A DNA stretch of 64,000 nt from a phage. Of this stretch, positions 2,794 through 43,392 are shown one piece after another; positions within the stretch are counted from its first letter, which is position 1; each line of letters begins with the position of its first letter. The DNA lies in the sequence record NC_102531.1. One strand, written 5' to 3'. A program made the translations under genes and the position numbers. The notes beneath the pieces were generated by a model. It worked only from the letters and a program-made list of their open reading frames with translations. It had not been told where the DNA came from and ran no database searches.

Positions 2794-2942
2794 TTTTATC
2801 GCTCTTTAAAACAAGGTGCCAACCGTTTCCAATAGATCACTGACTACAAGGACAATACTGATCAGCACATATCTAACCATAAGGGGGAAGAGCGCCAGAG
2901 ATCCCGCCACAATCCCCAAGGTGATAATTATCTTTCTCATGG

Positions 2943-3227
2943 TTAACGGTTCACGTAAGTTTTCCCGTTTACGGTGATGGGCAGATCCTCCAGGTCTGGA
3001 TCTTCCTTAAGGTCGCGAGCAAGCTCACCGCACCGGATACCCTCGAATCCGTAGTACTCTGTCGTGCCGTCCCGGAAAGTTTTAGCGGCAAGGCATAAGC
3101 GATAAGTAACCCCGATTTGATTGACGGCATGAATATCCGTTAGATTAACCTCTTTTGCCAGCTCTTTAGCCATTACAGGCGCATTAAGTCCAACAACCAG
3201 GGCAACCACTGCGATCATCTTTTTCAT
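2943..3227 (-). CDS. Small secreted protein (94 aa) with N-terminal signal-peptide-like segment
   Basis: MKKMIAVVALVVGLNAPVMA then polar domain; AAGAGGA Shine-Dalgarno. Confidence 0.5.
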   Translation of the reverse strand: MKKMIAVVALVVGLNAPVMAKELAKEVNLTDIHAVNQIGVTYRLCLAAKTFRDGTTEYYGFEGIRCGELARDLKEDPDLEDLPITVNGKTYVNR

Positions 3228-3318
3228 TGTGTCTATCCTCTTTCTGCTAAGTTTAAGGCGGCGGTAACCGCCTGTTTATGCTTTGTTGGTTAATTTTCGG
3301 GTATCGGTATAAATTAAA

Positions 3319-3534
3319 CTATGCTGTACGCTCAACTATAACAACGGTTTGGGGGATCTCACCTTCCACCACTAATAAGGCCTTTTTCTGCGTGATGGAT
3401 ATCTTTACCCGTTGCAGCGTGGCGGTGAAGTCTTTCATTTCGTCACGTGGTGTTTTAGTGCAATACCAGATCTCAGGCTTGCCGATCTGTAAGTTGCGTA
3501 AAAATTCTGTTTTGCCTGTTTTGTTAGTGATCAT
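3319..3534 (-). CDS. Hypothetical protein (71 aa)
   Basis: ORF in the operon frame series. Confidence 0.45.
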   Translation of the reverse strand: MITNKTGKTEFLRNLQIGKPEIWYCTKTPRDEMKDFTATLQRVKISITQKKALLVVEGEIPQTVVIVERTA

Positions 3535-3543
3535 TTGCCAACC

Positions 3544-3648
3544 TCACCCGATACCGTTGGAAGACAAGATCATATTAGACATGGTTGCAATCAGGCCAAT
3601 ACCCAGGGCAATAACCAGGATCACCGCATCAATTAATTTCTGTTTCAT
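3544..3648 (-). CDS. Small hydrophobic peptide (34 aa, MKQKLIDAVILVIALGIGLIATMSNMILSSNGIG)
   Basis: Hand-translated; ATG preceded by AGAAGAGGA; below the ORF-track size cutoff. Confidence 0.35.
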   Translation of the reverse strand: MKQKLIDAVILVIALGIGLIATMSNMILSSNGIG

Positions 3649-3738
3649 CTTGTTTTCCTCTTCTTGTTCCAGGTGGCGGACCATTCCACCGCCTTATGTA
3701 TTATGCTTTGTTAGATGGTTGTTTGTTGTCAAGCTATT

Positions 3739-3993
3739 TTAACGATAATCATCGTACGCTTTATTAACCTGGCGAATATAACATTCAAAAGCCAGATCAA
3801 TAGATTTATATTCACGGATATATTCACCATAGGAAACAACATACATTTCTATAGCTTCCTCATATGCGAGGAGAATAGAATCTAAGCCTACGATCTCAGT
3901 CTTTGCAATAATAGCCATGATTTTTATCCTCTTTGTGGTTGGTGGGGCTTGTTCCTTTGATTTATATTCTACAGTCTTATAAGGCCATGTCAA
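3739..3993 (-). CDS. Hypothetical protein (84 aa)
   Basis: ORF. Confidence 0.45.
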   Translation of the reverse strand: MTWPYKTVEYKSKEQAPPTTKRIKIMAIIAKTEIVGLDSILLAYEEAIEMYVVSYGEYIREYKSIDLAFECYIRQVNKAYDDYR

Positions 3994-4251
3994 CTATTTT
4001 TCAAAAAATTTTTCTGCTGTGATATTCTTCCCGGTAGGGTTCGCTACTTTCAAAATTTTATCATGCACTGGACGCCCAAAAGAATAAGCGCCGTACACAG
4101 TAAACCAATAATCGCCGTCAGGCTGTACTATTACCGCCGCATATGGTACGCCTTTTTCGTTATTGCTGACAAAATAGATCACATTGCCATTAATAGCCTC
4201 AGCGCGTTTAATTTGTTCCATCATGATAGTTTGCCTCTTTTTATTTTTCAT
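3994..4251 (-). CDS. Hypothetical protein (85 aa)
   Basis: ORF abutting the upstream gene. Confidence 0.45.
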   Translation of the reverse strand: MKNKKRQTIMMEQIKRAEAINGNVIYFVSNNEKGVPYAAVIVQPDGDYWFTVYGAYSFGRPVHDKILKVANPTGKNITAEKFFEK

Positions 4252-4286
4252 AATTTCAGGCGGGGGCCTTTTCGGCCCCGCCAGGT

Positions 4287-4619
4287 TTATTTATTGATAG
4301 CGTGCAGCGGGAAAGCTACGCCAGGTTGATAGATAACCTTTACAACCTCATCAGGACAAAAGAAATTGCAGAACTCACCGCAATAGGCCTCATCCTCTTT
4401 CAACTCTTCATCAACATACTCAAAAAAGTAGTCGATGCTTGGATAATCTTGCCCTGGGTTATAGTCAACCATTGTCAGGACTAGTTCAAGATCGTTGCGT
4501 AGGATATGCATACCCGCTTTTAAGTATTTTGCTTCCATTTCTACTACATCGCCAGCGGTAACAATAGCCATGGTTTTAACTCCTGTTTCTGTTAATGATT
4601 GGGGGCCGCCCCTTGACAC
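4287..4619 (-). CDS. Hypothetical protein (110 aa)
   Basis: ORF. Confidence 0.5.
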   Translation of the reverse strand: MSRGGPQSLTETGVKTMAIVTAGDVVEMEAKYLKAGMHILRNDLELVLTMVDYNPGQDYPSIDYFFEYVDEELKEDEAYCGEFCNFFCPDEVVKVIYQPGVAFPLHAINK

Positions 4620-4792
4620 GTCCTATTATCCATATTGTAGGGCTTGATGCAAGTACTTATTTAAAAATTTTTTAAGCGCCTTGGGGGCCGCTGTAACGCT
4701 AAAATAATAAAGGCCATGCAACCGCATAGCCTTTATGTGATTATATCGCTGCAGGCCCTGCTAGGGGCCTTATTTTGCATCATTTGCCGGAA

Positions 4793-5098
4793 CTACACAG
4801 AGAAAACATCGTTCACAATAGCGATCACAATGCCGCCCACCTTGTCACGGTCAACAATGCACAAATCACCATAGATCATGTGGTAGTCTGGATGATCTTT
4901 CACGGAATAGTCAATGAGCGTTTTCTTGTCGTCCAGCTTTGTAACTTCCATTCTCATAACGATATGAGAATCATCAAAGGCATTATTCCGAAAAGTCATA
5001 GCCTGACCACCAGGGCACCCAGTGATCTCCACTTCCACACCGTCTACGATCTGACCATCAAAGAAATAAAGATTATTGGCGGGTATAAACATGATCAT
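4793..5098 (-). CDS. Hypothetical protein (101 aa; start moved to the ATG after AAGGAG)
   Basis: The track ORF begins at GTG 5113; ATG at 5098 has AAGGAG 4-5 nt upstream. Confidence 0.5.
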   Translation of the reverse strand: MIMFIPANNLYFFDGQIVDGVEVEITGCPGGQAMTFRNNAFDDSHIVMRMEVTKLDDKKTLIDYSVKDHPDYHMIYGDLCIVDRDKVGGIVIAIVNDVFSV

Positions 5099-5134
5099 TA
5101 CTCCTTTTTGCACTGATTATTTTAACAGGGTTTA

Positions 5135-5164
5135 AATTTACTTTATTGATGGCCCTGGAGTCAA
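5135..5164 (-). promoter_or_regulatory. Sigma70-like promoter, repeat family A copy 1 (-35 TTGACT, 18-nt spacer, -10 TAAATT)
   Basis: Inside a 50-bp element (5137..5186) repeated at 8880..8929 and, degenerate, at 9502..9541. Confidence 0.45.
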
Positions 5165-5183
5165 GGCCATCTAAAAATAAATT

Positions 5184-5384
5184 TTACAGGCCTACAATCT
5201 CTTTGATTCGTTTAATTGCTGCCTCAGCGCCTTGGGGGTAGAAATTATGGTAACCAATCACGCGAGTGATACTAATCGCCGTTTGATGATCTTCATAGTC
5301 GCCCTTGAAGATTTCTTGACCGTCAATCAGCACGGCAATTTTTTCTTCTTTTTTGAAGTTAATAACGCGGATATTGTTGCTCAT
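5184..5384 (-). CDS. Hypothetical protein (66 aa)
   Basis: ORF. Confidence 0.45.
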   Translation of the reverse strand: MSNNIRVINFKKEEKIAVLIDGQEIFKGDYEDHQTAISITRVIGYHNFYPQGAEAAIKRIKEIVGL

Positions 5385-5484
5385 TTTGTTTCTCCTTTCT
5401 GGTTTTTGTGGTGGTAGGGATTAGCTCCCCGTTGATTGTTATTATCCACATTCCGGACCGGATTGCAACACTCCGGAAGAAAAA

Positions 5485-5519
5485 TTTTTTAAAAAGATAG
5501 GCCCCCATGATCGGGGGCC
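5485..5519 (-). terminator. Intrinsic terminator
   Basis: Stem GGCCCCC / GGGGGCC, then TATCTTTTT on the minus strand. Confidence 0.55.
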
Positions 5520-5523
5520 GTTC

Positions 5524-5643
5524 TTAGTTACTTACAGCGATAAAGTACATCCCTACGCCTAGCAATATTTCAAGGGCGATAATCTCAAGCCATACCATAA
5601 CGCGGCGCACCTTATCGGTGCATGGCTTATCCTTGGTTGTCAT
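5524..5643 (-). CDS. Small membrane peptide (39 aa, MTTKDKPCTDKVRRVMVWLEIIALEILLGVGMYFIAVSN)
   Basis: Hand-translated; AGGAGGA Shine-Dalgarno; ATGA start-stop overlap with the upstream ORF. Confidence 0.35.
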   Translation of the reverse strand: MTTKDKPCTDKVRRVMVWLEIIALEILLGVGMYFIAVSN

Positions 5644-5903
5644 CGTCTCCCCCTTTCCTCCTGGTAGTAGTGACGCGATCTACAATGGCCCCCAGGAGTC
5701 CTATCACGACACACACCACAAGAAAAATTATCTCCGCTGTTGTTCGATCCATTGTTATAAAATTCCTCAAGATCAGGCCTGAAAATAAAGCGTTCGTTAT
5801 TGAATCCGTCACGCCAGGCGGCTGGCTTCAAATCTTCACTAAAGGGATTAATTAACGTGGCATTATTTAAACGGTTGGCCCACATATTTTCTATTCCTCT
5901 CAA
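5640..5903 (-). CDS. Hypothetical protein (about 81-87 aa; start uncertain)
   Basis: ATGA coupling to the 39-aa gene; the alternative frame 5627..5812 encodes a TM-containing ORF, so the frame choice is ambiguous. Confidence 0.3.
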   Translation of the reverse strand: MRGIENMWANRLNNATLINPFSEDLKPAAWRDGFNNERFIFRPDLEEFYNNGSNNSGDNFSCGVCRDRTPGGHCRSRHYYQEERGRR

Positions 5904-6234
5904 ATAGACGATCCGCCTCAGTTAAACATATCTCATGGGCTTGATCTCTGGTTTTAGCCTCATCAAAAACCTGTTGTGCCAGGCTGCAGCGTAGGGAGAC
6001 TGGAAGATCACTATAATAGGCGTTGACAAACGTTTGAGCGTCGTACAGGTCTGAAAATACTTTACCCTTTCTATTATTCCCCTTGTCAACAATTGCAAGG
6101 ATAACCAATACAATAGTTGCAACCACCCCCAAGAAAATAGATATAATAAACCATAAAAAGGCGGATCTGCCCATCTTGCCAGCGATCCAGGCGTTAAACA
6201 AGGCAACCAATACAGTCAAAATAATAAATTCCAT
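5863..6234 (-). CDS. Small membrane protein (123 aa, two hydrophobic helices)
   Basis: ATG at 6234 preceded by AAAGAGGT; track start at 6267 judged too far upstream. Confidence 0.5.
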   Translation of the reverse strand: MEFIILTVLVALFNAWIAGKMGRSAFLWFIISIFLGVVATIVLVILAIVDKGNNRKGKVFSDLYDAQTFVNAYYSDLPVSLRCSLAQQVFDEAKTRDQAHEICLTEADRLFERNRKYVGQPFK

Positions 6235-6298
6235 TCTATGTACCTCTTTTGCAGTTCTGTTTAACAATAAGGCGGCAAATATGCCGCCTGTTACCTGA

Positions 6299-6679
6299 TT
6301 AAAAATTATCGCCGTAAATCTTTCCGCTTTCTGCCCACACCACCACGCGGGGCATACTATCCCACACGTCTTGTTTTAGATTGAGCGCGTGCAATTCTTC
6401 GGTGGTGCCCATACCGGGCACGGGCTGATTGTATACTGCAAAACGACCACCCGCATAGTCATAGGCCAGAGTTAAATCACACTGGATCATCTTTTTGATC
6501 ATGGCATTAAGCATGGCGTTAGCCGCATACTGATCACGTTTTAAAGGCAACTCTTTGATTAGTTTGCGATAGTTTTCGATATGGTCGCACACTGTTTCAC
6601 GCGGAAGATCTTTCATATCCTCGCGAAAGGTAACCAGGTTAAACATAACGGTGTCAATAGCTTTAGTAGTGTTTTTCAT
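6299..6679 (-). CDS. Hypothetical protein (126 aa)
   Basis: ORF; hairpin GGGGGCAA / TTGCCCCC in the 5' UTR. Confidence 0.5.
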   Translation of the reverse strand: MKNTTKAIDTVMFNLVTFREDMKDLPRETVCDHIENYRKLIKELPLKRDQYAANAMLNAMIKKMIQCDLTLAYDYAGGRFAVYNQPVPGMGTTEELHALNLKQDVWDSMPRVVVWAESGKIYGDNF

Positions 6680-6769
6680 GATGTTTTCCTCTTTGTTTTG
6701 TGTGGGGGCAAACGTCTTGCCCCCTTGAGTTTTAATATAGCAGGTTTTTAGGTTATTGCAACACTTTAT

Positions 6770-7393
6770 TTATGAAAAAGTCATCTCGCCATATTCATCC
6801 ACATCAAACCGCCAATCATTGGCCTCGATAAGGCCGATCAGGTTTTCGGTAGTGAATTGTTCAAGATAGGCCCCCTCCAGGTCTACGTAAACCTTGCGGG
6901 ATAGTTCCCGTACCGTCTCGGTGATCAGCTCTTCCAGCTCTTCAACCTTACTTTCTTGCTTGGCTGTCAGGTCTAGCCATGTAGTATCGATGTACCCGCT
7001 TACAGTGTTTTCGTGACTATAGCGGCTATATGGATCACGCTCAACACTTGCGGATAGTTCGCCATCGTGCATTGTGCCGAACAAGTGACGAATTGAACGG
7101 AATTTAGTCAGAGACTTGACTTTACGCAAGAATTTTTCTAAATCCACGTTTTCAGCACTGATTGACGCGCCGTCACCCTGGCACCAAAAGCCGGACCAAT
7201 GTACCTTGGTATCTTCAAGGCCGTACTCTGGAAAGATATATTCTTCATAGTATTCAATTACATTTTCTGCAAAAAAGTTATCCCCGCTGTGTTCTTCTCT
7301 TTCGCGGACCATTTCAACGGCTTTTTCTTTTTGTTCGTCGGTCAGCACGTCGAAAGATAAATTGTAACCTGTGGTAATGTTAACGGTGGTCAT
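6770..7393 (-). CDS. Hypothetical acidic protein (207 aa)
   Basis: ORF with AGGAGAAAAT Shine-Dalgarno, downstream of a consensus-like promoter. Confidence 0.55.
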   Translation of the reverse strand: MTTVNITTGYNLSFDVLTDEQKEKAVEMVREREEHSGDNFFAENVIEYYEEYIFPEYGLEDTKVHWSGFWCQGDGASISAENVDLEKFLRKVKSLTKFRSIRHLFGTMHDGELSASVERDPYSRYSHENTVSGYIDTTWLDLTAKQESKVEELEELITETVRELSRKVYVDLEGAYLEQFTTENLIGLIEANDWRFDVDEYGEMTFS

Positions 7394-7421
7394 GATATTT
7401 TCTCCTATTTTCTTTGTTAGT

Positions 7422-7440
7422 GGCGGGAAGTTTTCCCGCC
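7422..7440 (-). promoter_or_regulatory. 5' UTR stem-loop GGCGGGAA gtt TTCCCGCC, conserved family B element
   Basis: 8-bp perfect stem between promoter and ribosome-binding site; related copies at 9293..9309 and 9958..9978. Confidence 0.45.
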
Positions 7441-7450
7441 TGTGTGTTTA

Positions 7451-7479
7451 AGTATACTTATTGATATTTACTTGTCAAC
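7451..7479 (-). promoter_or_regulatory. Sigma70-like promoter, family B copy 1 (-35 TTGACA, 17-nt spacer, -10 TATACT)
   Basis: Near-consensus hexamers with correct spacing upstream of gene 6770..7393. Confidence 0.55.
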
Positions 7480-7728
7480 ACTATTTTTTAAATTATTGTG
7501 GCGTAAAATGTTCAAGATCTCTTCAACGTCATCAACACGGCGGCAATTTTTAAACGCTACCAATTGCCCCAGGATTTTAATCACTGGACGGCCTTGCCAG
7601 TGCCCTTGGAGAAAGCGCGCCTTAACTTTATCGGTGGAACTATCGCGCCACCAAACTGCTTTATTATTGCAGTAGTAAAAATTATTCAGGACAACATCTA
7701 CTTTATCAAAATTTTTTAATTTGCGCAT
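7468..7728 (-). CDS. Hypothetical protein (86 aa)
   Basis: ORF. Confidence 0.45.
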   Translation of the reverse strand: MRKLKNFDKVDVVLNNFYYCNNKAVWWRDSSTDKVKARFLQGHWQGRPVIKILGQLVAFKNCRRVDDVEEILNILRHNNLKNSVDK

Positions 7729-7973
7729 GGCGTTTACTCCTTCCTTCTTGCTTTGATGTGGTTAGTATATCCGGACTATTCCAAGGTGTCAAGCTTTGAA
7801 TAAAATCACTGTCAATAATATTTTTAACGCCATAAAACGGCCCTAGACGCTGTTTTCAGGTCAAGAAAGGGGATTGCATAGGTAGGGGCTTTTGTGGCGT
7901 TTGTGGGGCCAACCGGGGGCGCTATTCGTAGGATAGAAATAAAAAGCCCCGCACAATGGCGGGGCGTTGGTTG

Positions 7974-8171
7974 TTATTTGCCTTTGTGGCGGTATCGTTC
8001 CGCCTGTCGTTCACGTTCCAAAAGTAGGCCCGGCAATTTACGATCATAATGATTCCGCCAGATCTTCCCAAATCTTTTTGGCTTATTCAGTTTATTGTTG
8101 CGCTGGCGGCGTTCCGGCAACTCTTCAGAATCATGAGGGCGCTTTACAATTTTTTCGAAATTAATTTTCAT
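7974..8171 (-). CDS. Small basic protein (65 aa)
   Basis: ATG at 8171 preceded by AGGGGGA; Arg/Lys-rich. Confidence 0.45.
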   Translation of the reverse strand: MKINFEKIVKRPHDSEELPERRQRNNKLNKPKRFGKIWRNHYDRKLPGLLLERERQAERYRHKGK

Positions 8172-8532
8172 AACTTCCCCCTTTACTGATCTCAATATTT
8201 GCCTGAATCGCCCGGATACGCCGTTTTATAACCTCCTGATCCTTGCAATCATATCCCCAAAAGTCTACGATTTTTGCGCCTCCAGCCTTTAGGCGGTATA
8301 GTGTTTCTTGCATCTTGTAAGCCGGGATCGGTCGCGGTGTTACCTGGTCGCCCTTCTCATTCTTGTACTTGATAATGTAGTCTTCATTGTCGTTGAATAC
8401 CCAAAATGGGTATTCTGTGAGCGCGTTGCTCTCTTTTTCGTTTTTGGATTGGATCTTGTTTACAATTAAAGCCGTAGCAATAGCACCAATAATAAAACTT
8501 GCCCCGCTGATCATGTTACTTTCTCCTTTCAT
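8161..8532 (-). CDS. Hypothetical protein with N-terminal hydrophobic segment (123 aa)
   Basis: ORF; ISGASFIIGAIATALIV looks like a TM helix. Confidence 0.45.
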   Translation of the reverse strand: MKGESNMISGASFIIGAIATALIVNKIQSKNEKESNALTEYPFWVFNDNEDYIIKYKNEKGDQVTPRPIPAYKMQETLYRLKAGGAKIVDFWGYDCKDQEVIKRRIRAIQANIEISKGGSYEN

Positions 8533-8590
8533 TGTGTTGATAAACTATCTTTATAGATGGCCCTGCTACCAGGACCACCGAAAAAACAGT

Positions 8591-8836
8591 TTATTTGACG
8601 ATACCGACAAAACAGATCCCGCCTTCCCCTATATAGGCAATATCGGTAATTTTATAATTTGTCAAGATCCGCGTGTTCAGCTCATTAATAAAATCTGTCA
8701 TCGCGTTGGTGTAGTTGTCTTCCATGTCTAGGGAATAATCCCAGGTGTAAACCTTTTTACGTCCGAAGCCTTTTACCATGATACGGGCGCTTTTGGTGTT
8801 AGTAGGAGCATAATACTTGGTGATTAGTGCTGCCAT
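8591..8836 (-). CDS. Hypothetical protein (81 aa)
   Basis: ORF with AAGGAG Shine-Dalgarno, downstream of the family A promoter. Confidence 0.5.
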   Translation of the reverse strand: MAALITKYYAPTNTKSARIMVKGFGRKKVYTWDYSLDMEDNYTNAMTDFINELNTRILTNYKITDIAYIGEGGICFVGIVK

Positions 8837-8877
8837 GGTTTTAACTCCTTTGCATTAGTTCAGTGTTAACAGTATAA

Positions 8878-8907
8878 AGTTTACTTTATTGATGGCCCTG
8901 GAGTCAA
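8878..8907 (-). promoter_or_regulatory. Sigma70-like promoter, family A copy 2 (-35 TTGACT, 18-nt spacer, -10 TAAACT)
   Basis: 50-bp element 8880..8929 identical to 5137..5186. Confidence 0.45.
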
Positions 8908-8926
8908 GGCCATCTAAAAATAAATT

Positions 8927-9268
8927 TTACTCGTTTTCTTCCAGCTTTGAAAGCTCTTCTTTCACTTCTTCAAGCTCTGTCTGCAATTCTTGGTACTCTT
9001 CATCGTCCTCAATATCCAGGCTGTCGATGTAGTCGCTAAATCCGCAGCGGTAAGCGATAGGATCTAACTCCTTGAGGATACGCGACGGAAGAAAAGAAAT
9101 GTTTCCGATCATAATTTCGCCATAAACCTCGTCTAGCCATTCATCATAGTTTTCGTCGTACTTGTCCTCGTCGATTTCAAAGTTATCGATCTTATTCTCA
9201 AGGTCTGCGATCTGTTTTTTCAGAGCGGCGATCTGCAGGGCTTTTTCTTCGGCGGTCATAGTAGTCAT
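8927..9268 (-). CDS. Acidic coiled-coil protein (113 aa)
   Basis: ORF; heptad-like acidic sequence. Confidence 0.5.
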   Translation of the reverse strand: MTTMTAEEKALQIAALKKQIADLENKIDNFEIDEDKYDENYDEWLDEVYGEIMIGNISFLPSRILKELDPIAYRCGFSDYIDSLDIEDDEEYQELQTELEEVKEELSKLEENE

Positions 9269-9319
9269 GGTGTTTTTCTCCTTTCGTGTGTCTGGGGAAG
9301 TTTTCCCGTCTATGTGCTT

Positions 9320-9347
9320 AGTATACTGATCTAAGTTAGCTTGTCAA
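9320..9347 (-). promoter_or_regulatory. Sigma70-like promoter, family B copy 2 (-35 TTGACA, 16-nt spacer, -10 TATACT)
   Basis: Same architecture as 7451..7479, followed by a GGGAA / TTCCC hairpin. Confidence 0.5.
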
Positions 9348-9467
9348 TTAAAAGTTTAAGAAAAATTTTGCTACACCGTTGGCGCTACCCATCAACATTT
9401 GCGCCAGGATGTAACCAATGATGCAAACGATAATAGTTACCTTTGTGTGCTGGCGTGTAGTGCTCAT
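9348..9467 (-). CDS. Small membrane peptide (39 aa, MSTTRQHTKVTIIVCIIGYILAQMLMGSANGVAKFFLNF)
   Basis: Hand-translated codon by codon; AGGAGG Shine-Dalgarno 7 nt upstream. Confidence 0.35.
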   Translation of the reverse strand: MSTTRQHTKVTIIVCIIGYILAQMLMGSANGVAKFFLNF

Positions 9468-9542
9468 CTTTAAGCCTCCTTTTCCGCTTAATTGTGGTTA
9501 GTTTACTTTATTGATTGGAGTCAAGGCCATCTAAAAATAAAC

Positions 9543-9938
9543 TCAATAAGTTTTTAGTACTTTCCCGTCCAATCTGTCAAGCTGGATCTCGATAGCTGCA
9601 GAAAACCTATTGTAAACCACATCGCCCAAGGAGTCCAGCCAATCTATGACGTTATACACCTGCTCTTTATTCTTGCAAGTCCGGATCCGTTTCATTACGT
9701 AAGACGGATCAATATTAGTGCTCTCGTTGTTGTGGTCATGCGCCTGGCCTGCCGCATTAGTTATAGATTTTACAACCACCTGAAAAGGCTTTAAGGTGCC
9801 TTTTGCGTTCATCTCACGCGCTTTTGCGGCGCGGTTGTTATATGTTACACAACGGCGGCAAATGTTGACTAAATGCATGTCAATAATTTTTTCATCGTTT
9901 GCCAGTTCGTTCATGATGCGGCGTACGTTCTTATTCAT
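9543..9938 (-). CDS. Hypothetical protein (131 aa)
   Basis: ORF with AGGAAA Shine-Dalgarno. Confidence 0.5.
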   Translation of the reverse strand: MNKNVRRIMNELANDEKIIDMHLVNICRRCVTYNNRAAKAREMNAKGTLKPFQVVVKSITNAAGQAHDHNNESTNIDPSYVMKRIRTCKNKEQVYNVIDWLDSLGDVVYNRFSAAIEIQLDRLDGKVLKTY

Positions 9939-9957
9939 GATCTTTTTCCTTTGTGTT

Positions 9958-9978
9958 GGCGGGAAACATTCCCGTCTT
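9958..9978 (-). promoter_or_regulatory. 5' UTR stem-loop GGCGGGAA aca TTCCCGTC, family B copy 3
   Basis: Same hairpin as 7422..7440 with one wobble pair. Confidence 0.4.
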
Positions 9979-10025
9979 TTGTGTATAGTTTACTTGAATT
10001 TTGCAGCGTGTCAATAATTTTTTTT

Positions 10026-10424
10026 TTATTCGTGGGCACATGTTACAATGTGCTTTTTATAGCCCAGGTGGTTAGCAAGTGCCGCCAAAAACTCTTCTTC
10101 ATAGATCCAGCCGTCGGCAGTGATTCCCATGGCACTTAATGCGCTTTCAAGTGCAGCGTTGGCTTTATCATAACCGTGACCGCTCGCCTTGCCGCCAGTA
10201 TAACCGTACTTATTGTTCTTGTTGTCGTGAATCCAAAATACACAGTAGTGAGTGTTACCGCTGGCGGCGGCATAGTACCGGATCTCCGCTACTTCGTGCA
10301 AATTATTATCATCGTCCAGGCCAACCAGATTATAGGCCTTGTAGAATCCGCGATCACGGCGGCAGCTTTTAACATCAGAAAAAGAGAAGTCAGCATTGTC
10401 AAAATTAAAGGTTGTGGTTTTCAT
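10026..10424 (-). CDS. Hypothetical protein (132 aa)
   Basis: ORF. Confidence 0.5.
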   Translation of the reverse strand: MKTTTFNFDNADFSFSDVKSCRRDRGFYKAYNLVGLDDDNNLHEVAEIRYYAAASGNTHYCVFWIHDNKNNKYGYTGGKASGHGYDKANAALESALSAMGITADGWIYEEEFLAALANHLGYKKHIVTCAHE

Positions 10425-10488
10425 GATTTTATCCTCTTAGTGTCTTTTGTGCTTTCAGTATATTTTGTTTCAGACTACATGTCAATAT

Positions 10489-10686
10489 TTATTTTTTATT
10501 AAACCAGTGGTTGATCTGACCTTTTGTCAGGGCGCAACGATTAAGCTGTTGCAGGGTATAGCTATGACCGCGACGAAATTTATAAAGGCCTTGCCCGTTG
10601 TTGATGGTTACATCCACCCGGCAAATCACTTGATTGGTGACCACCTGGCGAGTGTTGCGACGTACTTTGATCCCGTATGCGTTCAT
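10489..10686 (-). CDS. Hypothetical protein (65 aa; start at the internal ATG)
   Basis: ATG at 10686 preceded by AAAGAGGA. Confidence 0.4.
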   Translation of the reverse strand: MNAYGIKVRRNTRQVVTNQVICRVDVTINNGQGLYKFRRGHSYTLQQLNRCALTKGQINHWFNKK

Positions 10687-10767
10687 AAATTTATCCTCTT
10701 TACTGGTTAGTGCGGTGTTGTTCACCTTGTAGGGTAATAATACCATGATTAACCTTGTTGTCAACGA

Positions 10768-10941
10768 CTATTTTAAATTATTTTTATGATAGAATCCACC
10801 TGCCGCCCCCGCTAGGTTAACCACCATTTTTTCGTACTCTTCTTTATGTTCCAACGCTCCCGCCATAGCCTTTTCAACCAGGGCGATAGCCTCAGCGTCA
10901 TTAATCGCTACATTCTCCAGGTGAGTAGCATTACCTTTCAT
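10768..10941 (-). CDS. Small protein (57 aa, MKGNATHLENVAINDAEAIALVEKAMAGALEHKEEYEKMVVNLAGAAGGFYHKNNLK)
   Basis: Hand-translated; GAGGAGG Shine-Dalgarno 6 nt upstream. Confidence 0.35.
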   Translation of the reverse strand: MKGNATHLENVAINDAEAIALVEKAMAGALEHKEEYEKMVVNLAGAAGGFYHKNNLK

Positions 10942-11067
10942 TTTTGTACCTCCTCTTCAATTGTTTACCCTACTACCAGGTTTGCAAGCTTTCACCCCCC
11001 TGCCAGGCTGGCCCCGCCAGGTTGCAACGGTTAGCGCATCAGGTTAGAAAAAATTTTTTGAAAAGTG

Positions 11068-11096
11068 TTGACAGCGGCCCCGCCGGGTGGCACAAT
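11068..11096 (+). promoter_or_regulatory. Plus-strand promoter-like unit 1 (-35 TTGACA, AT-rich upstream, weak -10 CACAAT with TG at -15)
   Basis: Perfect -35 hexamer; weak -10; no ORF downstream. Confidence 0.35.
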
Positions 11097-11211
11097 ATAC
11101 CTATCGAAAGGACGGCAGGCACCGGTGACGGGGGAGACAACCACCGGGGATGGGCGCTGCATAAAATGAGAACGGTTATCATTATCATTTAAAAATTTAT
11201 GCAAAAAGTCC

Positions 11212-11242
11212 TTGCTTTCTTTGTCCTGTGTGATACTATAAT
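11212..11242 (+). promoter_or_regulatory. Plus-strand promoter-like unit 2 (-35 TTGCTT, -10 TATAAT)
   Basis: Perfect -10 hexamer at 11237..11242; downstream region shares GGGAGACAA and GAGAAnGnTTATCATT motifs with unit 1. Confidence 0.4.
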
Positions 11243-11358
11243 AACAAGCCGGGGCAACAGGGGCCGGGAGACAATCACCGGGCCTGCCCGTTATTCTGCA
11301 AACGAGAATGATTATCATTCAAAATTCTAAATGAGAACTCCTCGCATTTAATAAATTT

Positions 11359-11374
11359 AATTAGCATGCTAATT
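11359..11374. repeat. 16-bp perfect palindrome AATTAGCATGCTAATT (candidate operator)
   Basis: Self-complementary on inspection. Confidence 0.5.
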
Positions 11375-11523
11375 ACCCTCCGTAACAATTTCCTATAAAA
11401 CAGTATCCCATAAAATATTCCCATATAGAAATTTTAAAAATCCATTTCTGAAAACGAAAAATCGATTTCGTCCCCAAAAATTTCAGGTCGAGATCCGGAA
11501 CGATTTCCAGAAAATCCGGTTCA

Positions 11524-11547
11524 GAAAACGAAAAACAGATCGAGTAC
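11524..11547. repeat. Direct repeat GAAAACGAAAAACAGATCGAGTAC, copy b
   Basis: 22 bp identical to 11591..11612; partial copy at 11450..11466; contains GATC. Confidence 0.6.
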
Positions 11548-11589
11548 TGAGAAATTTATCGAGAAAAATTTTCAGAAAATTCAATCTTT

Positions 11590-11612
11590 GAAACGAAAAA
11601 CAGATCGAGTAC
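11590..11612. repeat. Direct repeat GAAACGAAAAACAGATCGAGTAC, copy c
   Basis: Matches copy b. Confidence 0.6.
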
Positions 11613-11924
11613 CTGGAAAGCTGCACCGCAACTTCAAGATAGTGGTTGGATTATTACCATAAAAGGTCAAGGGTAAGTGGAGGAAGTTCTGGTAGAAGGG
11701 TGTGAGCATGTGCGGGAAATCTGTAATGGTGGTCTGGAATATGGTGCAAACGATAGGATGAGTGGTTCATCTCGCCATGCCTGCTCTGAAAAATCCATTT
11801 TAGTTTTCGATCCATTTTCTGATTTTCTAAGGATTTTAAAATATCCAGCCTGGTGAAATATCAAAAGGAGGAAATCCATTTTAGAAATCCCCCTTACACT
11901 TGATATGCCAGGAATTTTCAAGTA

Positions 11925-12254
11925 TCAGCTGTCTTTGTTTTTAGGTTTGTACATGCGCAGAGGTATGGTCTTTGTAACACTCCATTTCCTCAACCCTTCC
12001 CAGCTCCAGTTGTGGGCGTGGTATCCGGTTATGCATGCACTGCTGGCGTGATCATAAGCATAAGAGAACGCTATGTGCACCAGGTGGGGCCAGTCCTTCC
12101 ACGGCTGTGGACCGTAAGCCTTTCTCCAACACCGACACAAACTAATTGTCTCAAGAATAGGGAGAATAACAATTCCATATACCACCACCAGAATGGTCAG
12201 TGCAATGATTGTCAGGAACACATACCCTGCAGTTGAAATGATGATCTCTGTCAT
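11925..12254 (-). CDS. Membrane protein (109 aa)
   Basis: ORF; N-terminal hydrophobic helix. Confidence 0.45.
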   Translation of the reverse strand: MTEIIISTAGYVFLTIIALTILVVVYGIVILPILETISLCRCWRKAYGPQPWKDWPHLVHIAFSYAYDHASSACITGYHAHNWSWEGLRKWSVTKTIPLRMYKPKNKDS

Positions 12255-12454
12255 TTGTCGTCCCCTTTCTTACGAATATAGATGTGAGAGCCTGCCTGTA
12301 TATAAATTTCTCGACCATCCTCTGCAAAGATATGAAATACACGATCACCTTCGTACTCGATACGAGATATCTTCATAATGGTCTTTCCACCTGGGATACG
12401 GATCTCGTCTCCCACAGCGATGTTCCATGCAGATTTAAGCTTAAACATCTGCAC
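12251..12454 (-). CDS. Hypothetical protein (67 aa)
   Basis: ORF with 4-nt overlap to the downstream gene. Confidence 0.45.
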   Translation of the reverse strand: MQMFKLKSAWNIAVGDEIRIPGGKTIMKISRIEYEGDRVFHIFAEDGREIYIQAGSHIYIRKKGDDK

Positions 12455-12686
12455 CCTCCTTTGGGAACTTGAACTCTGGCATAGCCATATACGCTACAAC
12501 AGGGTTGTGATCAAAGTAGAACTGACCGTTAATTATCCCGGTTTTGTCCACATAGTTACCAGATCCTGCAAGAACAACCTCGCAAGCTCCGAAATCTACA
12601 TTGCCATCCTCATCAGCCATAGCTACAATATACTTTCCTAGGGGCATGTTTTTAACGCCGTCTACAAATGTCCACCCTTTGTTCAT
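12441..12686 (-). CDS. Hypothetical protein (81 aa)
   Basis: ORF. Confidence 0.45.
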   Translation of the reverse strand: MNKGWTFVDGVKNMPLGKYIVAMADEDGNVDFGACEVVLAGSGNYVDKTGIINGQFYFDHNPVVAYMAMPEFKFPKEGADV

Positions 12687-12706
12687 ACTTTATCTCCTGC
12701 ACTCTC

Positions 12707-13039
12707 TTAAGGTAACCAGTAAACAATCTCGCCTTTCAGCTTCATGTCGTTTCCAACATAAATTTCCCAGCCATCCATCTTAGCAACTGTAGGCCCAAAG
12801 TCATCCGCACCCCTTACCTCTTTCCAGGCTCCGTAGTCAGGTTGCCAGATATAGAATCCACCTTCTTTGTCCCATGCTCCGTACACTACGTTTAACAGGT
12901 TTCCCATTGCAACAATGGTGGGCCGTGGGAATAATACATCTACAGATGCGCCACAATTTCGGGTATCTTTTAAGTTGCAATCCCAAAAGATGTCTGCCAG
13001 TGTGGCGGCGATAGCTTTACGTCTTTCCAATGTTACCAT
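12707..13039 (-). CDS. Hypothetical protein (110 aa)
   Basis: ORF. Confidence 0.5.
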   Translation of the reverse strand: MVTLERRKAIAATLADIFWDCNLKDTRNCGASVDVLFPRPTIVAMGNLLNVVYGAWDKEGGFYIWQPDYGAWKEVRGADDFGPTVAKMDGWEIYVGNDMKLKGEIVYWLP

Positions 13040-13049
13040 GGCACGATAC

Positions 13050-13241
13050 TCACTTGTTGTTAAGAAGTTCTAAAACTTTCTGTTTTACTTTATCAAGATC
13101 TGTTGATTCAAAAACTGTGCGATATCCCCAGCTTTGACCATAGGAGCGACTGCAATCTCCGTAGCACCATTGTTCAATTTGATAATATTCAAGGAATGGA
13201 TGCTGTCTGACTATGATACCATCCCGATTAAAAATTACCAT
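13050..13241 (-). CDS. Hypothetical protein (63 aa)
   Basis: ORF. Confidence 0.45.
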   Translation of the reverse strand: MVIFNRDGIIVRQHPFLEYYQIEQWCYGDCSRSYGQSWGYRTVFESTDLDKVKQKVLELLNNK

Positions 13242-13309
13242 GGTAAAGTTCTCTCTCTTTGTTGGTTTATGCTTGCATTATACACTACAGTTTTCAGATG
13301 TCAACCTTT

Positions 13310-13480
13310 TTATACTAAAATCTCCAGCCAGAAAGCACACGGGAACACCTTGATGATTGAATCTTTACCTGGTTCAGCAGTTCTTTTTCCGTAGGGCAGG
13401 TAGAAATACCCTCCTGCAGATTCGAACACAGCCCCTTCGGTTGTATCTATCACAGCTAGAATTAAGATTTTAGTCTCCAT
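13310..13480 (-). CDS. Small protein (56 aa, METKILILAVIDTTEGAVFESAGGYFYLPYGKRTAEPGKDSIIKVFPCAFWLEILV)
   Basis: Hand-translated; GAGGGAG Shine-Dalgarno upstream; fills a 290-bp gap in the track. Confidence 0.35.
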   Translation of the reverse strand: METKILILAVIDTTEGAVFESAGGYFYLPYGKRTAEPGKDSIIKVFPCAFWLEILV

Positions 13481-13533
13481 AGTGCTCCCTCTCTCAATTG
13501 TTGTGGTGACTATACCACCTCAAGAGCCAGCTG

Positions 13534-14091
13534 TCAACACTTTTTGTACTCCACCACGATCACATCAATGTCTGTGGTGGCAAGATTAATGACGTCTTCC
13601 ACGTGTTCCCACTTTAGACCACCAATACCGCATCCGATTTTAGGAATGTAGAACGGTAATGACATACCTTTGAATACCTCATTGACTCGCTCAAAGCCTT
13701 TCATGATTGAGAAGTATTCAGCGTTAGGTCCTGGGTAGAACTGAGTATATAGGTTGATTCCATATACAACCTTGTTCTTGGCAAAATGCTCCCAACAAGA
13801 AAACATGCCCAGCTTGTCTAGATTACCATAAGCAGTCTCTTTGTCGGCTGCCAATGCTTGAGGGAACTCACGGGCAATATCTTTCGCTATGCCTGCCCCC
13901 ATTGTGTGAAAGCAGTTACAACCGTGGATCATGTGTCCTGCCCCTTTCTTGAAAAGGGAGATCAGATCCCCCTCTACAGTATCAATAATCACGGTATGCC
14001 AGCTCCTCTTCTGCAATTTCCAAAAACTCATCCCAACACTGTGGCATATTTGAGTTGCCGAAGTGGCTTTCGTAGTAGAGATTTTTACCAC
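13534..14091 (-). CDS. Macrodomain protein, TARG1/OARD1/DarG-like (ADP-ribose binding or hydrolase)
   Basis: GDLISL...HGCNCFHTMGAGIAKDI and IPKIGCGIGGLKWEHV align with the TARG1 motifs GDLF...MGAGIA and MPRIGCGLDRLQWENV as recalled; true start may be an internal Met. Confidence 0.65.
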   Translation of the reverse strand: MVKISTTKATSATQICHSVGMSFWKLQKRSWHTVIIDTVEGDLISLFKKGAGHMIHGCNCFHTMGAGIAKDIAREFPQALAADKETAYGNLDKLGMFSCWEHFAKNKVVYGINLYTQFYPGPNAEYFSIMKGFERVNEVFKGMSLPFYIPKIGCGIGGLKWEHVEDVINLATTDIDVIVVEYKKC

Positions 14092-43221: not shown

Positions 43222-43392
43222 ATGAGGCGAAGATATCATTACCTGATGTGGAAGTTATATCAAAATGCTGCCAAAGCCTATCATACCATGTTTGGCAATG
43301 ACGATCACTACATCATGTTACATCTCACCGCTATTGAGCATCACAATGAGTGGATTCATGCAATCGTGGCAGGTGATAAAGACTTTAAGTAA
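43222..43392 (+). CDS. Small His-rich protein (56 aa)
   Basis: Hand-translated MRRRYHYLMW...GDKDFK; below the track cutoff. Confidence 0.3.
   Translation: MRRRYHYLMWKLYQNAAKAYHTMFGNDDHYIMLHLTAIEHHNEWIHAIVAGDKDFK

Follow-up and report, generated by a model that had tools for sequence, protein, structure and literature searches.

Phage T4 encodes two superinfection-exclusion proteins, Imm and Sp, which are expressed early, reside in the inner membrane and measure roughly 80-100 aa. In the Staphylococcus phage PhiNM1, Gp11 is described as a small membrane protein among the phage early genes that binds the host proteins MurG and DivIC (PMC11237401). On the bacterial side, YohP of E. coli (PMC7549839), at 27 aa, belongs with a class of proteins (reviewed in PMC12648545) of <50 aa with a single hydrophobic helix that presumably modulate larger membrane proteins. 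Three phage-encoded, genus-restricted peptides analysed here share this size and single helix with the YohP class but show no sequence similarity to it. They are smaller than Imm and Sp, whose exclusion function is the one that the original prediction had in mind. Gp11 stems from a different host and phage lineage and has no detectable homology to the three peptides, and target and phenotype were demonstrated for Gp11; by analogy, it might nevertheless be the best documented model for how they could act.

The DNA that we analysed, referred to as the window, is a stretch of 64,000 nucleotides (sequence record NC_102531.1) that shares 90-94% identity with many Vequintavirus genomes, and judged by this its source is a Vequintavirus (rV5-like coliphage). 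The original prediction had proposed six small genes in it, and all six open reading frames were found exactly at the proposed positions, with ATG starts and the proposed lengths. We refer to them as c1 to c6 and list them with their rV5 equivalents and PHROG families:

3544..3648, minus strand: c1, 34-aa single-pass membrane peptide (MKQKLIDAVILVIALGIGLIATMSNMILSSNGIG); rV5 ORF173/gp168; PHROG 14631, full-length
5524..5643, minus strand: c2, 39-aa single-pass membrane peptide (…VWLEIIALEILLGVGMYFIAVSN); rV5 ORF181/gp176; PHROG 13629
9348..9467, minus strand: c3, 39-aa single-pass membrane peptide (MSTTRQHTKVTIIVCIIGYILAQMLMGSANGVAKFFLNF); rV5 ORF193/gp188; PHROG 16391
10768..10941, minus strand: c4, 57-aa soluble, probably helical protein; rV5 ORF197/gp192; PHROG 21957
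13310..13480, minus strand: c5, 56-aa non-membrane protein, predicted all-beta; rV5 ORF208/gp203; PHROG 15268
43222..43392, plus strand: c6, 56-aa His-rich soluble protein; rV5 ORF22/gp022; PHROG 12006

These small genes are genuine, ordinary and already known. They had been called unannotated, which is true only of the ORF track used for the original prediction: rV5 and other records carry annotation for all six, the rV5 reference NC_011041 since 2008/2013 (Kropinski et al. 2013, PMC3606486). Same-sized coding sequences are annotated in RudolfGeigy, navn, MiataMamis, DrSchubert and rV5, and collinear tables of these five genomes show order and strand preserved between the same flanking genes; c6 is annotated in rV5, B9-1 and ECP32. 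blastn aligns c1 and c2 with rV5 DNA at 100% identity, and c3 and c5 at 94%. Gene order, strand and flanking promoters agree between rV5 and the window, the differences being that c1 of rV5 was given a 46-aa start and that a frameshift shortens c4 to 41 aa in rV5. The exact c1-c6 sequences are held by NCBI, under Vequintavirus names, and by UniRef, and each matches its PHROG family end-to-end with E-values of 1e-22 to 1e-42; all six families belong to the unknown-function class, so that the matches amount to a sequence catalogue without functional information. Very probably, then, c1-c6 are six real, previously catalogued protein-coding genes of Vequintavirus accessory gene blocks.

Frames this short could also be chance openings in intergenic DNA propagated by automatic gene callers, as annotation spreads between related genomes, and one adjacent annotated ORF at 11031-11318 (rV5 ORF198) does behave as non-coding by its substitution pattern, with variable sites distributed over the codon positions as [11,10,11], a pN/pS of 0.71 and stops in one relative. 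That the same test scores this ORF as non-coding shows that it is able to discriminate. For c1, c2, c3, c5 and c6 the reading frame is intact in every relative examined, and in-frame pN/pS values lie at 0.16-0.39 versus about 0.6-2.7 in the off-frames (pairwise Nei-Gojobori estimates, phylogeny not taken into account), a pattern that indicates purifying selection at the amino-acid level in the proposed frame only. The c1, c2 and c3 peptides were recovered by tblastn at full length in 67/67, 118/118 (all Vequintavirus) and 112/112 independent phage records, while nearby non-coding DNA of these relatives shows between 3 and 43 gap positions over ~985 nt. Chance frames are thereby effectively refuted for these five genes, and for the set of six we consider this explanation barely credible.

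The individual frames bear this out. The c1 frame is kept at 34 aa in 12/12 fetched relatives, with a pN/pS of 0.39 versus 1.0 and 1.8 off-frame, and even the MiataMamis copy, strongly diverged in its N-terminal half, retains the length and the C-terminal ANMILSSNGIG. The upstream extension to the 46-aa rV5 start contains 1- and 5-nt gaps in relatives, and the 34-aa start is therefore preferred. A fourth small membrane peptide, missed in the original prediction, is located at 2806-2940. c2 is intact in 15/15 relatives, two of which carry an in-frame 3-nt insertion, and has a pN/pS of 0.18, with nine of its ten variable positions falling within the N-terminal 16 residues. c3 is intact in 14/14 relatives (pN/pS 0.16; distribution of variable sites over the codon positions [7,1,14], p=0.0035), but of the annotated records sampled about one in three has no feature at its site. 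c5, likewise intact in 14/14 relatives, starts with ATG or GTG, is extended by stop loss to 64-66 aa in two relatives and has a pN/pS of 0.21 ([9,5,20], p=0.002). Codon-position bias alone is not significant for c1 (p=0.18) and c2 (p=0.09) because of their few variable sites. c6 is intact in all eight sequences compared (the window and seven relatives), with a pN/pS of 0.22 versus 0.96 and 0.76 off-frame.

For c4 the picture is mixed. Among the fetched relatives, 7 have an intact frame of 58 aa, and MiataMamis has one of 56 aa whose N-terminal part is diverged, but frame-breaking indels occur in rV5, DrSchubert, ECO111 5-P and EI-SP-GF, several within C5 and A6 runs. At least 80% of c4 is covered in one piece in 83/107 records, about a fifth of the relatives, rV5 included, are frameshifted or truncated, and pN/pS among intact versions is 0.33. 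From this record across relatives we read c4 as a real gene that is dispensable or decaying. The proposed conservation of the frames thus holds for c1, c2, c3, c5 and c6, whereas the frame-disrupting differences in close relatives that would speak against it were seen in part for c4.

The surroundings of the genes contain the following further features:

5500..5519, minus strand: intrinsic-terminator-like hairpin of 8 pairs (7 G-C) with a T-run behind it, 5 nt past the c2 stop codon
5640-5885, minus strand: ORF182 equivalent, 81 aa (rV5 and BASEL annotation), overlapping the c2 start by 4 nt
5863-6234, minus strand: ORF183 equivalent, 123-aa membrane protein with 1-2 TMD (rV5 and BASEL annotation)
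6270-6289: hairpin
9320..9347, minus strand: sigma-70 promoter-like site TTGACA-16-TATACT, the -35 hexamer of which contains the c3 stop; the rV5 equivalent is the annotated promoter P192
10737..10764, minus strand: sigma-70 promoter-like site TTGACA-16-TATTAT with TG, directly after the c4 stop codon
13277..13304, minus strand: perfect-consensus sigma-70 promoter-like site TTGACA-16-TATAAT, just past the c5 stop codon
13509..13537, minus strand: sigma-70 promoter-like site close to consensus, TTGACA-17-TATAGT with TG, ~30 nt ahead of the c5 start codon

Strong Shine-Dalgarno sequences had been proposed for all six genes. They are present at c2 (GGGGGAG), c3 (AAGGAGG), c4 (a perfect AGGAGGT) and c5 (GAGAGGGAG), but only moderate at c6 (GGAG) and at c1 (GAGGA), where roughly half of the relatives have a weak or unconserved motif. 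The genes are packed tightly, the c1 stop lying 9 nt ahead of the next start, the c2 start overlapping the upstream stop and the c3 stop falling within the next promoter's -35 hexamer, an arrangement that would also suit frames in which only the act of translation matters, as leader or coupling uORFs for downstream genes or by keeping Rho off, the peptides themselves having no function. The selection on amino acids in the proposed frame argues against this, as does the retention of helix and C-terminal motifs despite strong DNA divergence (c1 of MiataMamis, c3 of locus L004); such residue conservation is not expected of a pure uORF, and we regard a translation-only role as very improbable.

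The first three products had been proposed to be single-helix membrane peptides, and hydropathy confirms this. With a membrane segment defined as ~19 residues or more at a Kyte-Doolittle mean above about 1.6, c1-c3 pass (maximum 19-residue means of 2.55, 2.15 and 2.08) and c4-c6 fail (0.55-1.27), in agreement with Table S3 of the rV5 study, where ORF173, 181 and 193 are listed as "membrane protein, 1 TMD" on the basis of TMHMM/Phobius (PMC3606486). c1-c3 follow a common plan of a short basic N-terminus, a ~20-residue hydrophobic helix and a tail of 2-12 residues. Lysines and arginines together number 2, 5 and 2 ahead of the helix (N-terminal) and 0, 0 and 1 behind it (C-terminal), and this positive-inside distribution predicts that the peptides sit in the E. 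coli inner membrane in an N-in/C-out orientation, the N-terminus facing the cytoplasm. The helix and the C-terminal tail are the most constrained parts and the cytoplasmic N-terminus the least, a pattern that fits an interaction surface in the membrane or on its periplasmic side.

Searches returned no relatives of described function. No Pfam family matched c1-c3 at E-values up to 1, an exhaustive HMMER scan of c2 against 1.84 billion representatives found nothing beyond its own cluster, and an Rfam search of the whole window matched no family. All six genes are genus-restricted; Pfam gave no match to them, fold comparison gave nothing informative, and none is homologous to a characterised protein. 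Membership of c1-c3 in a known exclusion family of the T4 Imm/Sp type was considered and rejected on the Pfam and HMMER results and on the PHROG matches, which are to unknown-function families only. The genes neighbouring c1-c3 all belong to unknown-function PHROGs, the ORF182 and ORF183 equivalents included, and the context is uninformative. In the literature we found no functional study of these genes, no Vequintavirus transcriptome or ribosome profiling and no tagging or fractionation report on the membrane localisation of c1-c3.

c3, c4 and c5 adjoin sites that share 11-12 of 12 positions with the sigma-70 consensus, in agreement with the annotated rV5 promoters. Host RNA polymerase would transcribe genes from such promoters early, a timing read from promoter sequence only, and we tentatively propose, at somewhat less than even odds, that c1-c3 are non-essential effectors made by the host polymerase soon after infection. 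They could contact inner-membrane proteins of the host (or the phage) by helix-helix or periplasmic-tail interactions and modulate these larger partners, in the manner of small membrane proteins from bacteria and of early phage proteins, among them PhiNM1 Gp11. That c1-c3 and the 2806-2940 peptide each bind a specific E. coli inner-membrane protein (in division or transport, a receptor or a defence component) is possible though unlikely; if true, rV5-like phages would own a set of 34-44-aa inhibitors without known homologues, and the two invariant glutamates within the c2 helix could form a pair with a basic residue in the helix of its target. The role in host takeover or superinfection exclusion that had been suggested for c1-c3 is plausible as a hypothesis.

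Small single-TM phage peptides may also serve lysis, as holins, antiholins, lysis-timing or spanin-like factors, and c2 closes a tight cassette of which the first gene (5863-6234) was called "putative holin" by the BASEL annotators. This label on the ORF183 equivalent has no supporting family match, however, and in rV5 the lysin (gp89) and a putative holin (ORF129) are encoded elsewhere in the genome (PMC3606486). The tails NMILSSNGIG (c1), SN (c2) and SANGVAKFFLNF (c3) contain at most one charged residue, and the peptides lie among consensus sigma-70 promoters rather than rV5's proposed late motif. We rejected c1-c3 as holins or antiholins, given that they have neither the charged C-terminal domain typical of holins nor an endolysin nearby, and consider a lysis-related role in general improbable.

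In size and hydrophobicity c1-c3 also resemble type I toxins, and toxicity is a recognised property of some early phage products (PMC13250531). Like these toxins or viroporins, they might depolarise the membrane and so aid host shut-off by membrane damage instead of through a specific partner, in which case an oligomeric pore could be lined by the two helix glutamates of c2, which do not vary among the 15 relatives. In sequence c1-c3 resemble no toxin family, and early depolarisation would presumably be costly for a lytic phage, which needs an energised host during replication; we give this reading only a small chance, and favour effectors that act on membrane partners.

The remaining three products (c4-c6) are soluble ORFans of small size. 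Among 5.8 billion proteins only 9 clusters match c5 at ≥75% identity, and a fold search with it gave no match other than its own ortholog; the best AF2 model reaches a pLDDT of 84, the five models being mutually inconsistent. The start of c6 overlaps the stop of the upstream gene in some relatives.

The region holding the first five candidate ORFs (window 3000-14000) matched 227 phage records by megablast, and the best matches, 90-94% identical across the entire stretch, all belong to Vequintavirus, the rV5-like E. coli myoviruses. Phages of this type serve in the biocontrol of E. coli O157 and are included in the BASEL collection. Several UNVERIFIED "Campylobacter phage" records are amongst the matches and are placed in Vequintavirus by taxonomy; around 20 GenBank records so named and marked (MG0656xx; loci L012, L014-L016, L019 and L026-L028 of the comparison) give C. 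jejuni as host but share 92-94% identity with E. coli Vequintaviruses; this host label is probably wrong. As IMG/VR yielded just two close relatives, GenBank phage records were used for comparison.

All six small ORFs are present where they were predicted, each with an ATG start. Orthologous frames were extracted from 15 fetched relatives for the minus-strand block and from seven for the c6 region.

Small ORFs of the window, their equivalents in the Vequintavirus reference genome rV5 (NC_011041), and their conservation (intact frames in fetched relatives; in-frame pN/pS; full-length tblastn records)
c1: 3544-3648, minus strand, 34-aa membrane peptide; ORF173/gp168; 12/12; 0.39; 67/67
c2: 5524-5643, minus strand, 39-aa membrane peptide; ORF181/gp176; 15/15; 0.18; 118/118
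c3: 9348-9467, minus strand, 39-aa membrane peptide; ORF193/gp188; 14/14; 0.16; 112/112
c4: 10768-10941, minus strand, 57-aa peptide; ORF197/gp192; frame broken in some relatives
c5: 13310-13480, minus strand, 56-aa peptide; ORF208/gp203; 14/14; 0.21
c6: 43222-43392, plus strand, 56-aa peptide; ORF22/gp022; 7/7 (8 sequences including the window); 0.22

The ORFs had been described as unannotated, which does not hold: CDSs of the same size are annotated in the related phages RudolfGeigy/Bas52, navn, MiataMamis, DrSchubert, B9-1 and ECP32, and ORF173 (46 aa), ORF181 (39 aa) and ORF193 (39 aa) of rV5 carry the label "membrane protein, 1 TMD" (Kropinski et al., 2013, Table S3, PMC3606486). The exact sequences of the six peptides are in NCBI/UniRef as hypothetical proteins, and each peptide matches end to end a PHROG family with no assigned function. 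The finding is therefore a rediscovery of annotations public since 2008/2013. In favour of the original prediction, about one third of the sampled annotated records carry no feature under the tblastn match to c3, so that gene callers often miss this gene. A greedy census of small ORFs preceded by a Shine-Dalgarno sequence was set aside as unreliable; in it, spurious antisense ORFs hid c1, c4 and c5. The strong Shine-Dalgarno sequences claimed for all six are found before c2, c3, c4 and c5, whereas those of c1 and c6 are moderate, and roughly half of the relatives have only a weak one before c1.

Conservation of the reading frame in relatives, proposed with the prediction as a check, was seen for c1, c2, c3, c5 and c6 and only in part for c4. 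While pN/pS in the two off-frames is about 0.6-2.7, the in-frame values are lower; since the neighbouring long genes show 0.05-0.16, the small genes are constrained, though less tightly than the long ones. The excess of variation at third positions is significant for c3 (p=0.0035), c5 (p=0.002) and c6 (p=0.02) and, taken alone, not significant for c1 (p=0.18) and c2 (p=0.09), both of which have few variable sites. Across the same relatives, the adjoining non-coding stretch at 10942-11925 shows 3-43 gap positions per ~985 nt. Changes of length within the genes include a 3-nt in-frame insertion in c2 of two relatives and stop-loss extensions of c5 in two; the c5 start codon alternates between ATG and GTG. 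Over its N-terminal half, the MiataMamis c1 can no longer be recognised by blastn, yet its frame still spans 34 aa, stays hydrophobic and retains the segment ANMILSSNGIG. For c1 the predicted length of 34 aa is a better call than the 46-aa form of rV5, because gaps of 1 and 5 nt occur in the 36-nt extension in relatives, and the shorter form is the one annotated in most other records.

The same analysis was applied to a 95-aa ORF at 11031-11318 (minus strand), which lies within the adjoining non-coding stretch and is annotated in several relatives (rV5 ORF198, RudolfGeigy bas52_0101). Its variable sites are spread evenly over the codon positions [11,10,11], its pN/pS is 0.71, two in-frame stops interrupt it in MiataMamis, and no Shine-Dalgarno sequence was found before it. 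Judged by this pattern it is likely an annotation artefact, and its non-coding signature indicates that the comparative test can discriminate. An ORF-track length cutoff conceals real genes, and frame preservation together with pN/pS by frame are simple comparative tests that sort these from spurious ones.

The exception, c4, has a perfect and invariant Shine-Dalgarno sequence. Seven fetched relatives keep the gene whole at 58 aa, and MiataMamis keeps it at 56 aa, there with its N-terminal part diverged; pN/pS across the intact versions is 0.33. Frame-breaking indels occur in rV5, DrSchubert, ECO111 5-P and EI-SP-GF, and only 83 of 107 phage records align without interruption over 80% or more of the peptide. 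Several of the indels fall in C5 and A6 runs, and sequencing error may account for some of the breaks; accepted as they stand, they describe a real but dispensable gene. An RNA-level element inside c4, suggested by its seemingly invariant middle, was rejected, the binned identity there (0.94; block mean 0.92, block maximum 0.98) being in the normal range. In rV5 (loci L011, L022), ORF177+178, ORF201+202 and ORF197 resemble pieces of ORFs that are single and intact in the window (4793-5113, 12251-12454 and 10768-10941) and in other relatives, and this fragmented appearance suggests that the reference sequence of 2008 contains frameshift errors.

The assignment of c1-c3 as single-helix membrane peptides is borne out by maximum 19-residue Kyte-Doolittle means of 2.55, 2.15 and 2.08, against 0.55-1.27 for c4-c6; the genes originally predicted are real, and three of them were described correctly. 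All but one of the K/R residues of c1-c3 lie N-terminal to the helix, which predicts an N-in/C-out topology. In c2, nine of ten variable positions fall within the first 16 residues, and the helix VWLEIIALEILLGVGMYFIAV, carrying two glutamates, is invariant except for A36S; in c1 and c3 conservation is highest in the C-terminal tails. This distribution would place the constrained surface inside the membrane or at its outer face, with the cytoplasmic N-terminus serving as a topological anchor. One more small hydrophobic peptide, the fourth, is encoded just left of the range originally listed, at 2806-2940 (minus strand, 44 aa, MRKIIITLGIVAGSLALFPLMVRYVLISIVLVVSDLLETVGTLF); it is absent from the original list and corresponds to rV5 ORF170 ("membrane protein, 1 TMD") and PHROG 16005.

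Homology searches related these peptides to no characterised protein. Pfam returned no match at E up to 1, c1-c4 are confined to Vequintavirus by tblastn, and phmmer, run exhaustively against 1.84 billion representatives, recovered for c2 its own cluster only, a single one at 50% identity. Amongst 5.8 billion proteins c5 has only nine clusters, all close relatives; its AF2 model is all-beta, with five models that disagree (pLDDT 48-84), and its own ortholog was the only Foldseek hit in PDB and BFVD. The representative of the 90%-identity cluster holding c5 is a 388-aa JGI "predicted ATPase", a grouping that we regard as a database clustering artefact because BLASTP shows no similarity (E=0.38). 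A literature search on the six ORFs found no Vequintavirus transcriptome, ribosome-profiling, genetic or functional study.

The best-supported reading, which we put forward tentatively by analogy, is that c1-c3 could be non-essential inner-membrane effectors; they would be expressed by host RNA polymerase and would act by binding larger membrane proteins, with superinfection exclusion as one possible outcome. The documented model is PhiNM1 Gp11, a small early membrane protein that binds MurG and DivIC (PMC11237401). A role in lysis seems improbable for such peptides, and a toxin-like action equally so. Nothing in the present evidence points to an unusual mechanism, and no new one emerges. The six ORFs are part of the large pool of uncharacterised small phage proteins; the value of the finding lies in showing that the comparative test works and in a clean candidate list, with c1, c2, c3 and the 2806-2940 peptide as truly conserved small membrane peptides for effector screens.

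The minus-strand block is a run of short genes, and a consensus scan places eight sigma-70 sites on this strand (each 11-12/12 consensus positions), in agreement with the promoters annotated in rV5. A tight cassette ends with c2: the equivalents of ORF183 (123 aa, 1-2 TMD) and ORF182 overlap each other, the latter shares 4 nt with the start of c2, and a strong predicted hairpin terminator follows 5 nt past c2. The c3 stop codon lies within the -35 hexamer of the next predicted promoter, and two predicted near-consensus promoters flank c5. Except for a Macro-domain protein (13534-14091), all neighbours belong to PHROGs of unknown function. Directly 3' of stop codons on the minus strand, an intergenic element, TAAAATTTATTTTTAGATGGCCTTGACTCCAGGGCCATCAATAAAGTAAA, is repeated at 5152-5187 and 8895-8930, with a partial copy at ~9515-9545; it forms a 7-bp hairpin (GATGGCC/GGCCATC) with TTGACT in the loop, also scores as a weak promoter (TTGACT-18-TAAAyT), and may act as terminator and promoter in one or else bind a protein.

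The ~985 nt at 10942-11925 (read on the minus strand) are conserved in all relatives at 83-95% identity with many indels and appear non-coding. They contain three direct repeats of ~62 nt each (11419-11619) and a G+C-rich motif of ~37 nt that occurs twice (about 11112-11148 and 11266-11300), each copy just downstream of a Fur-box-like sequence: GATAATGATAACCGTTCTC at 11168-11186 (3 mismatches, 0.03 expected by chance) and AATGATAATCATTCTC near 11308-11326. Searches of this stretch for tRNA, Rfam RNA and E. coli chromosomal matches found none, the folding z-score is only about -2 on both strands, and 73 nt of it have a match in Acinetobacter phage ABPH49 and Enterobacter phage FENT2. The stretch could serve in regulation, act as an origin or encode an RNA element. 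A third, inverted copy of the G+C-rich motif, ~8.6 kb from that at 11112-11148, is inferred at window ~2500-2550 from relatives (e.g. rV5 locus L011:3509-3548) and from pseudo-peptides of similar sequence in the window ORF list (…GTPGDCLPPSPGAC…).
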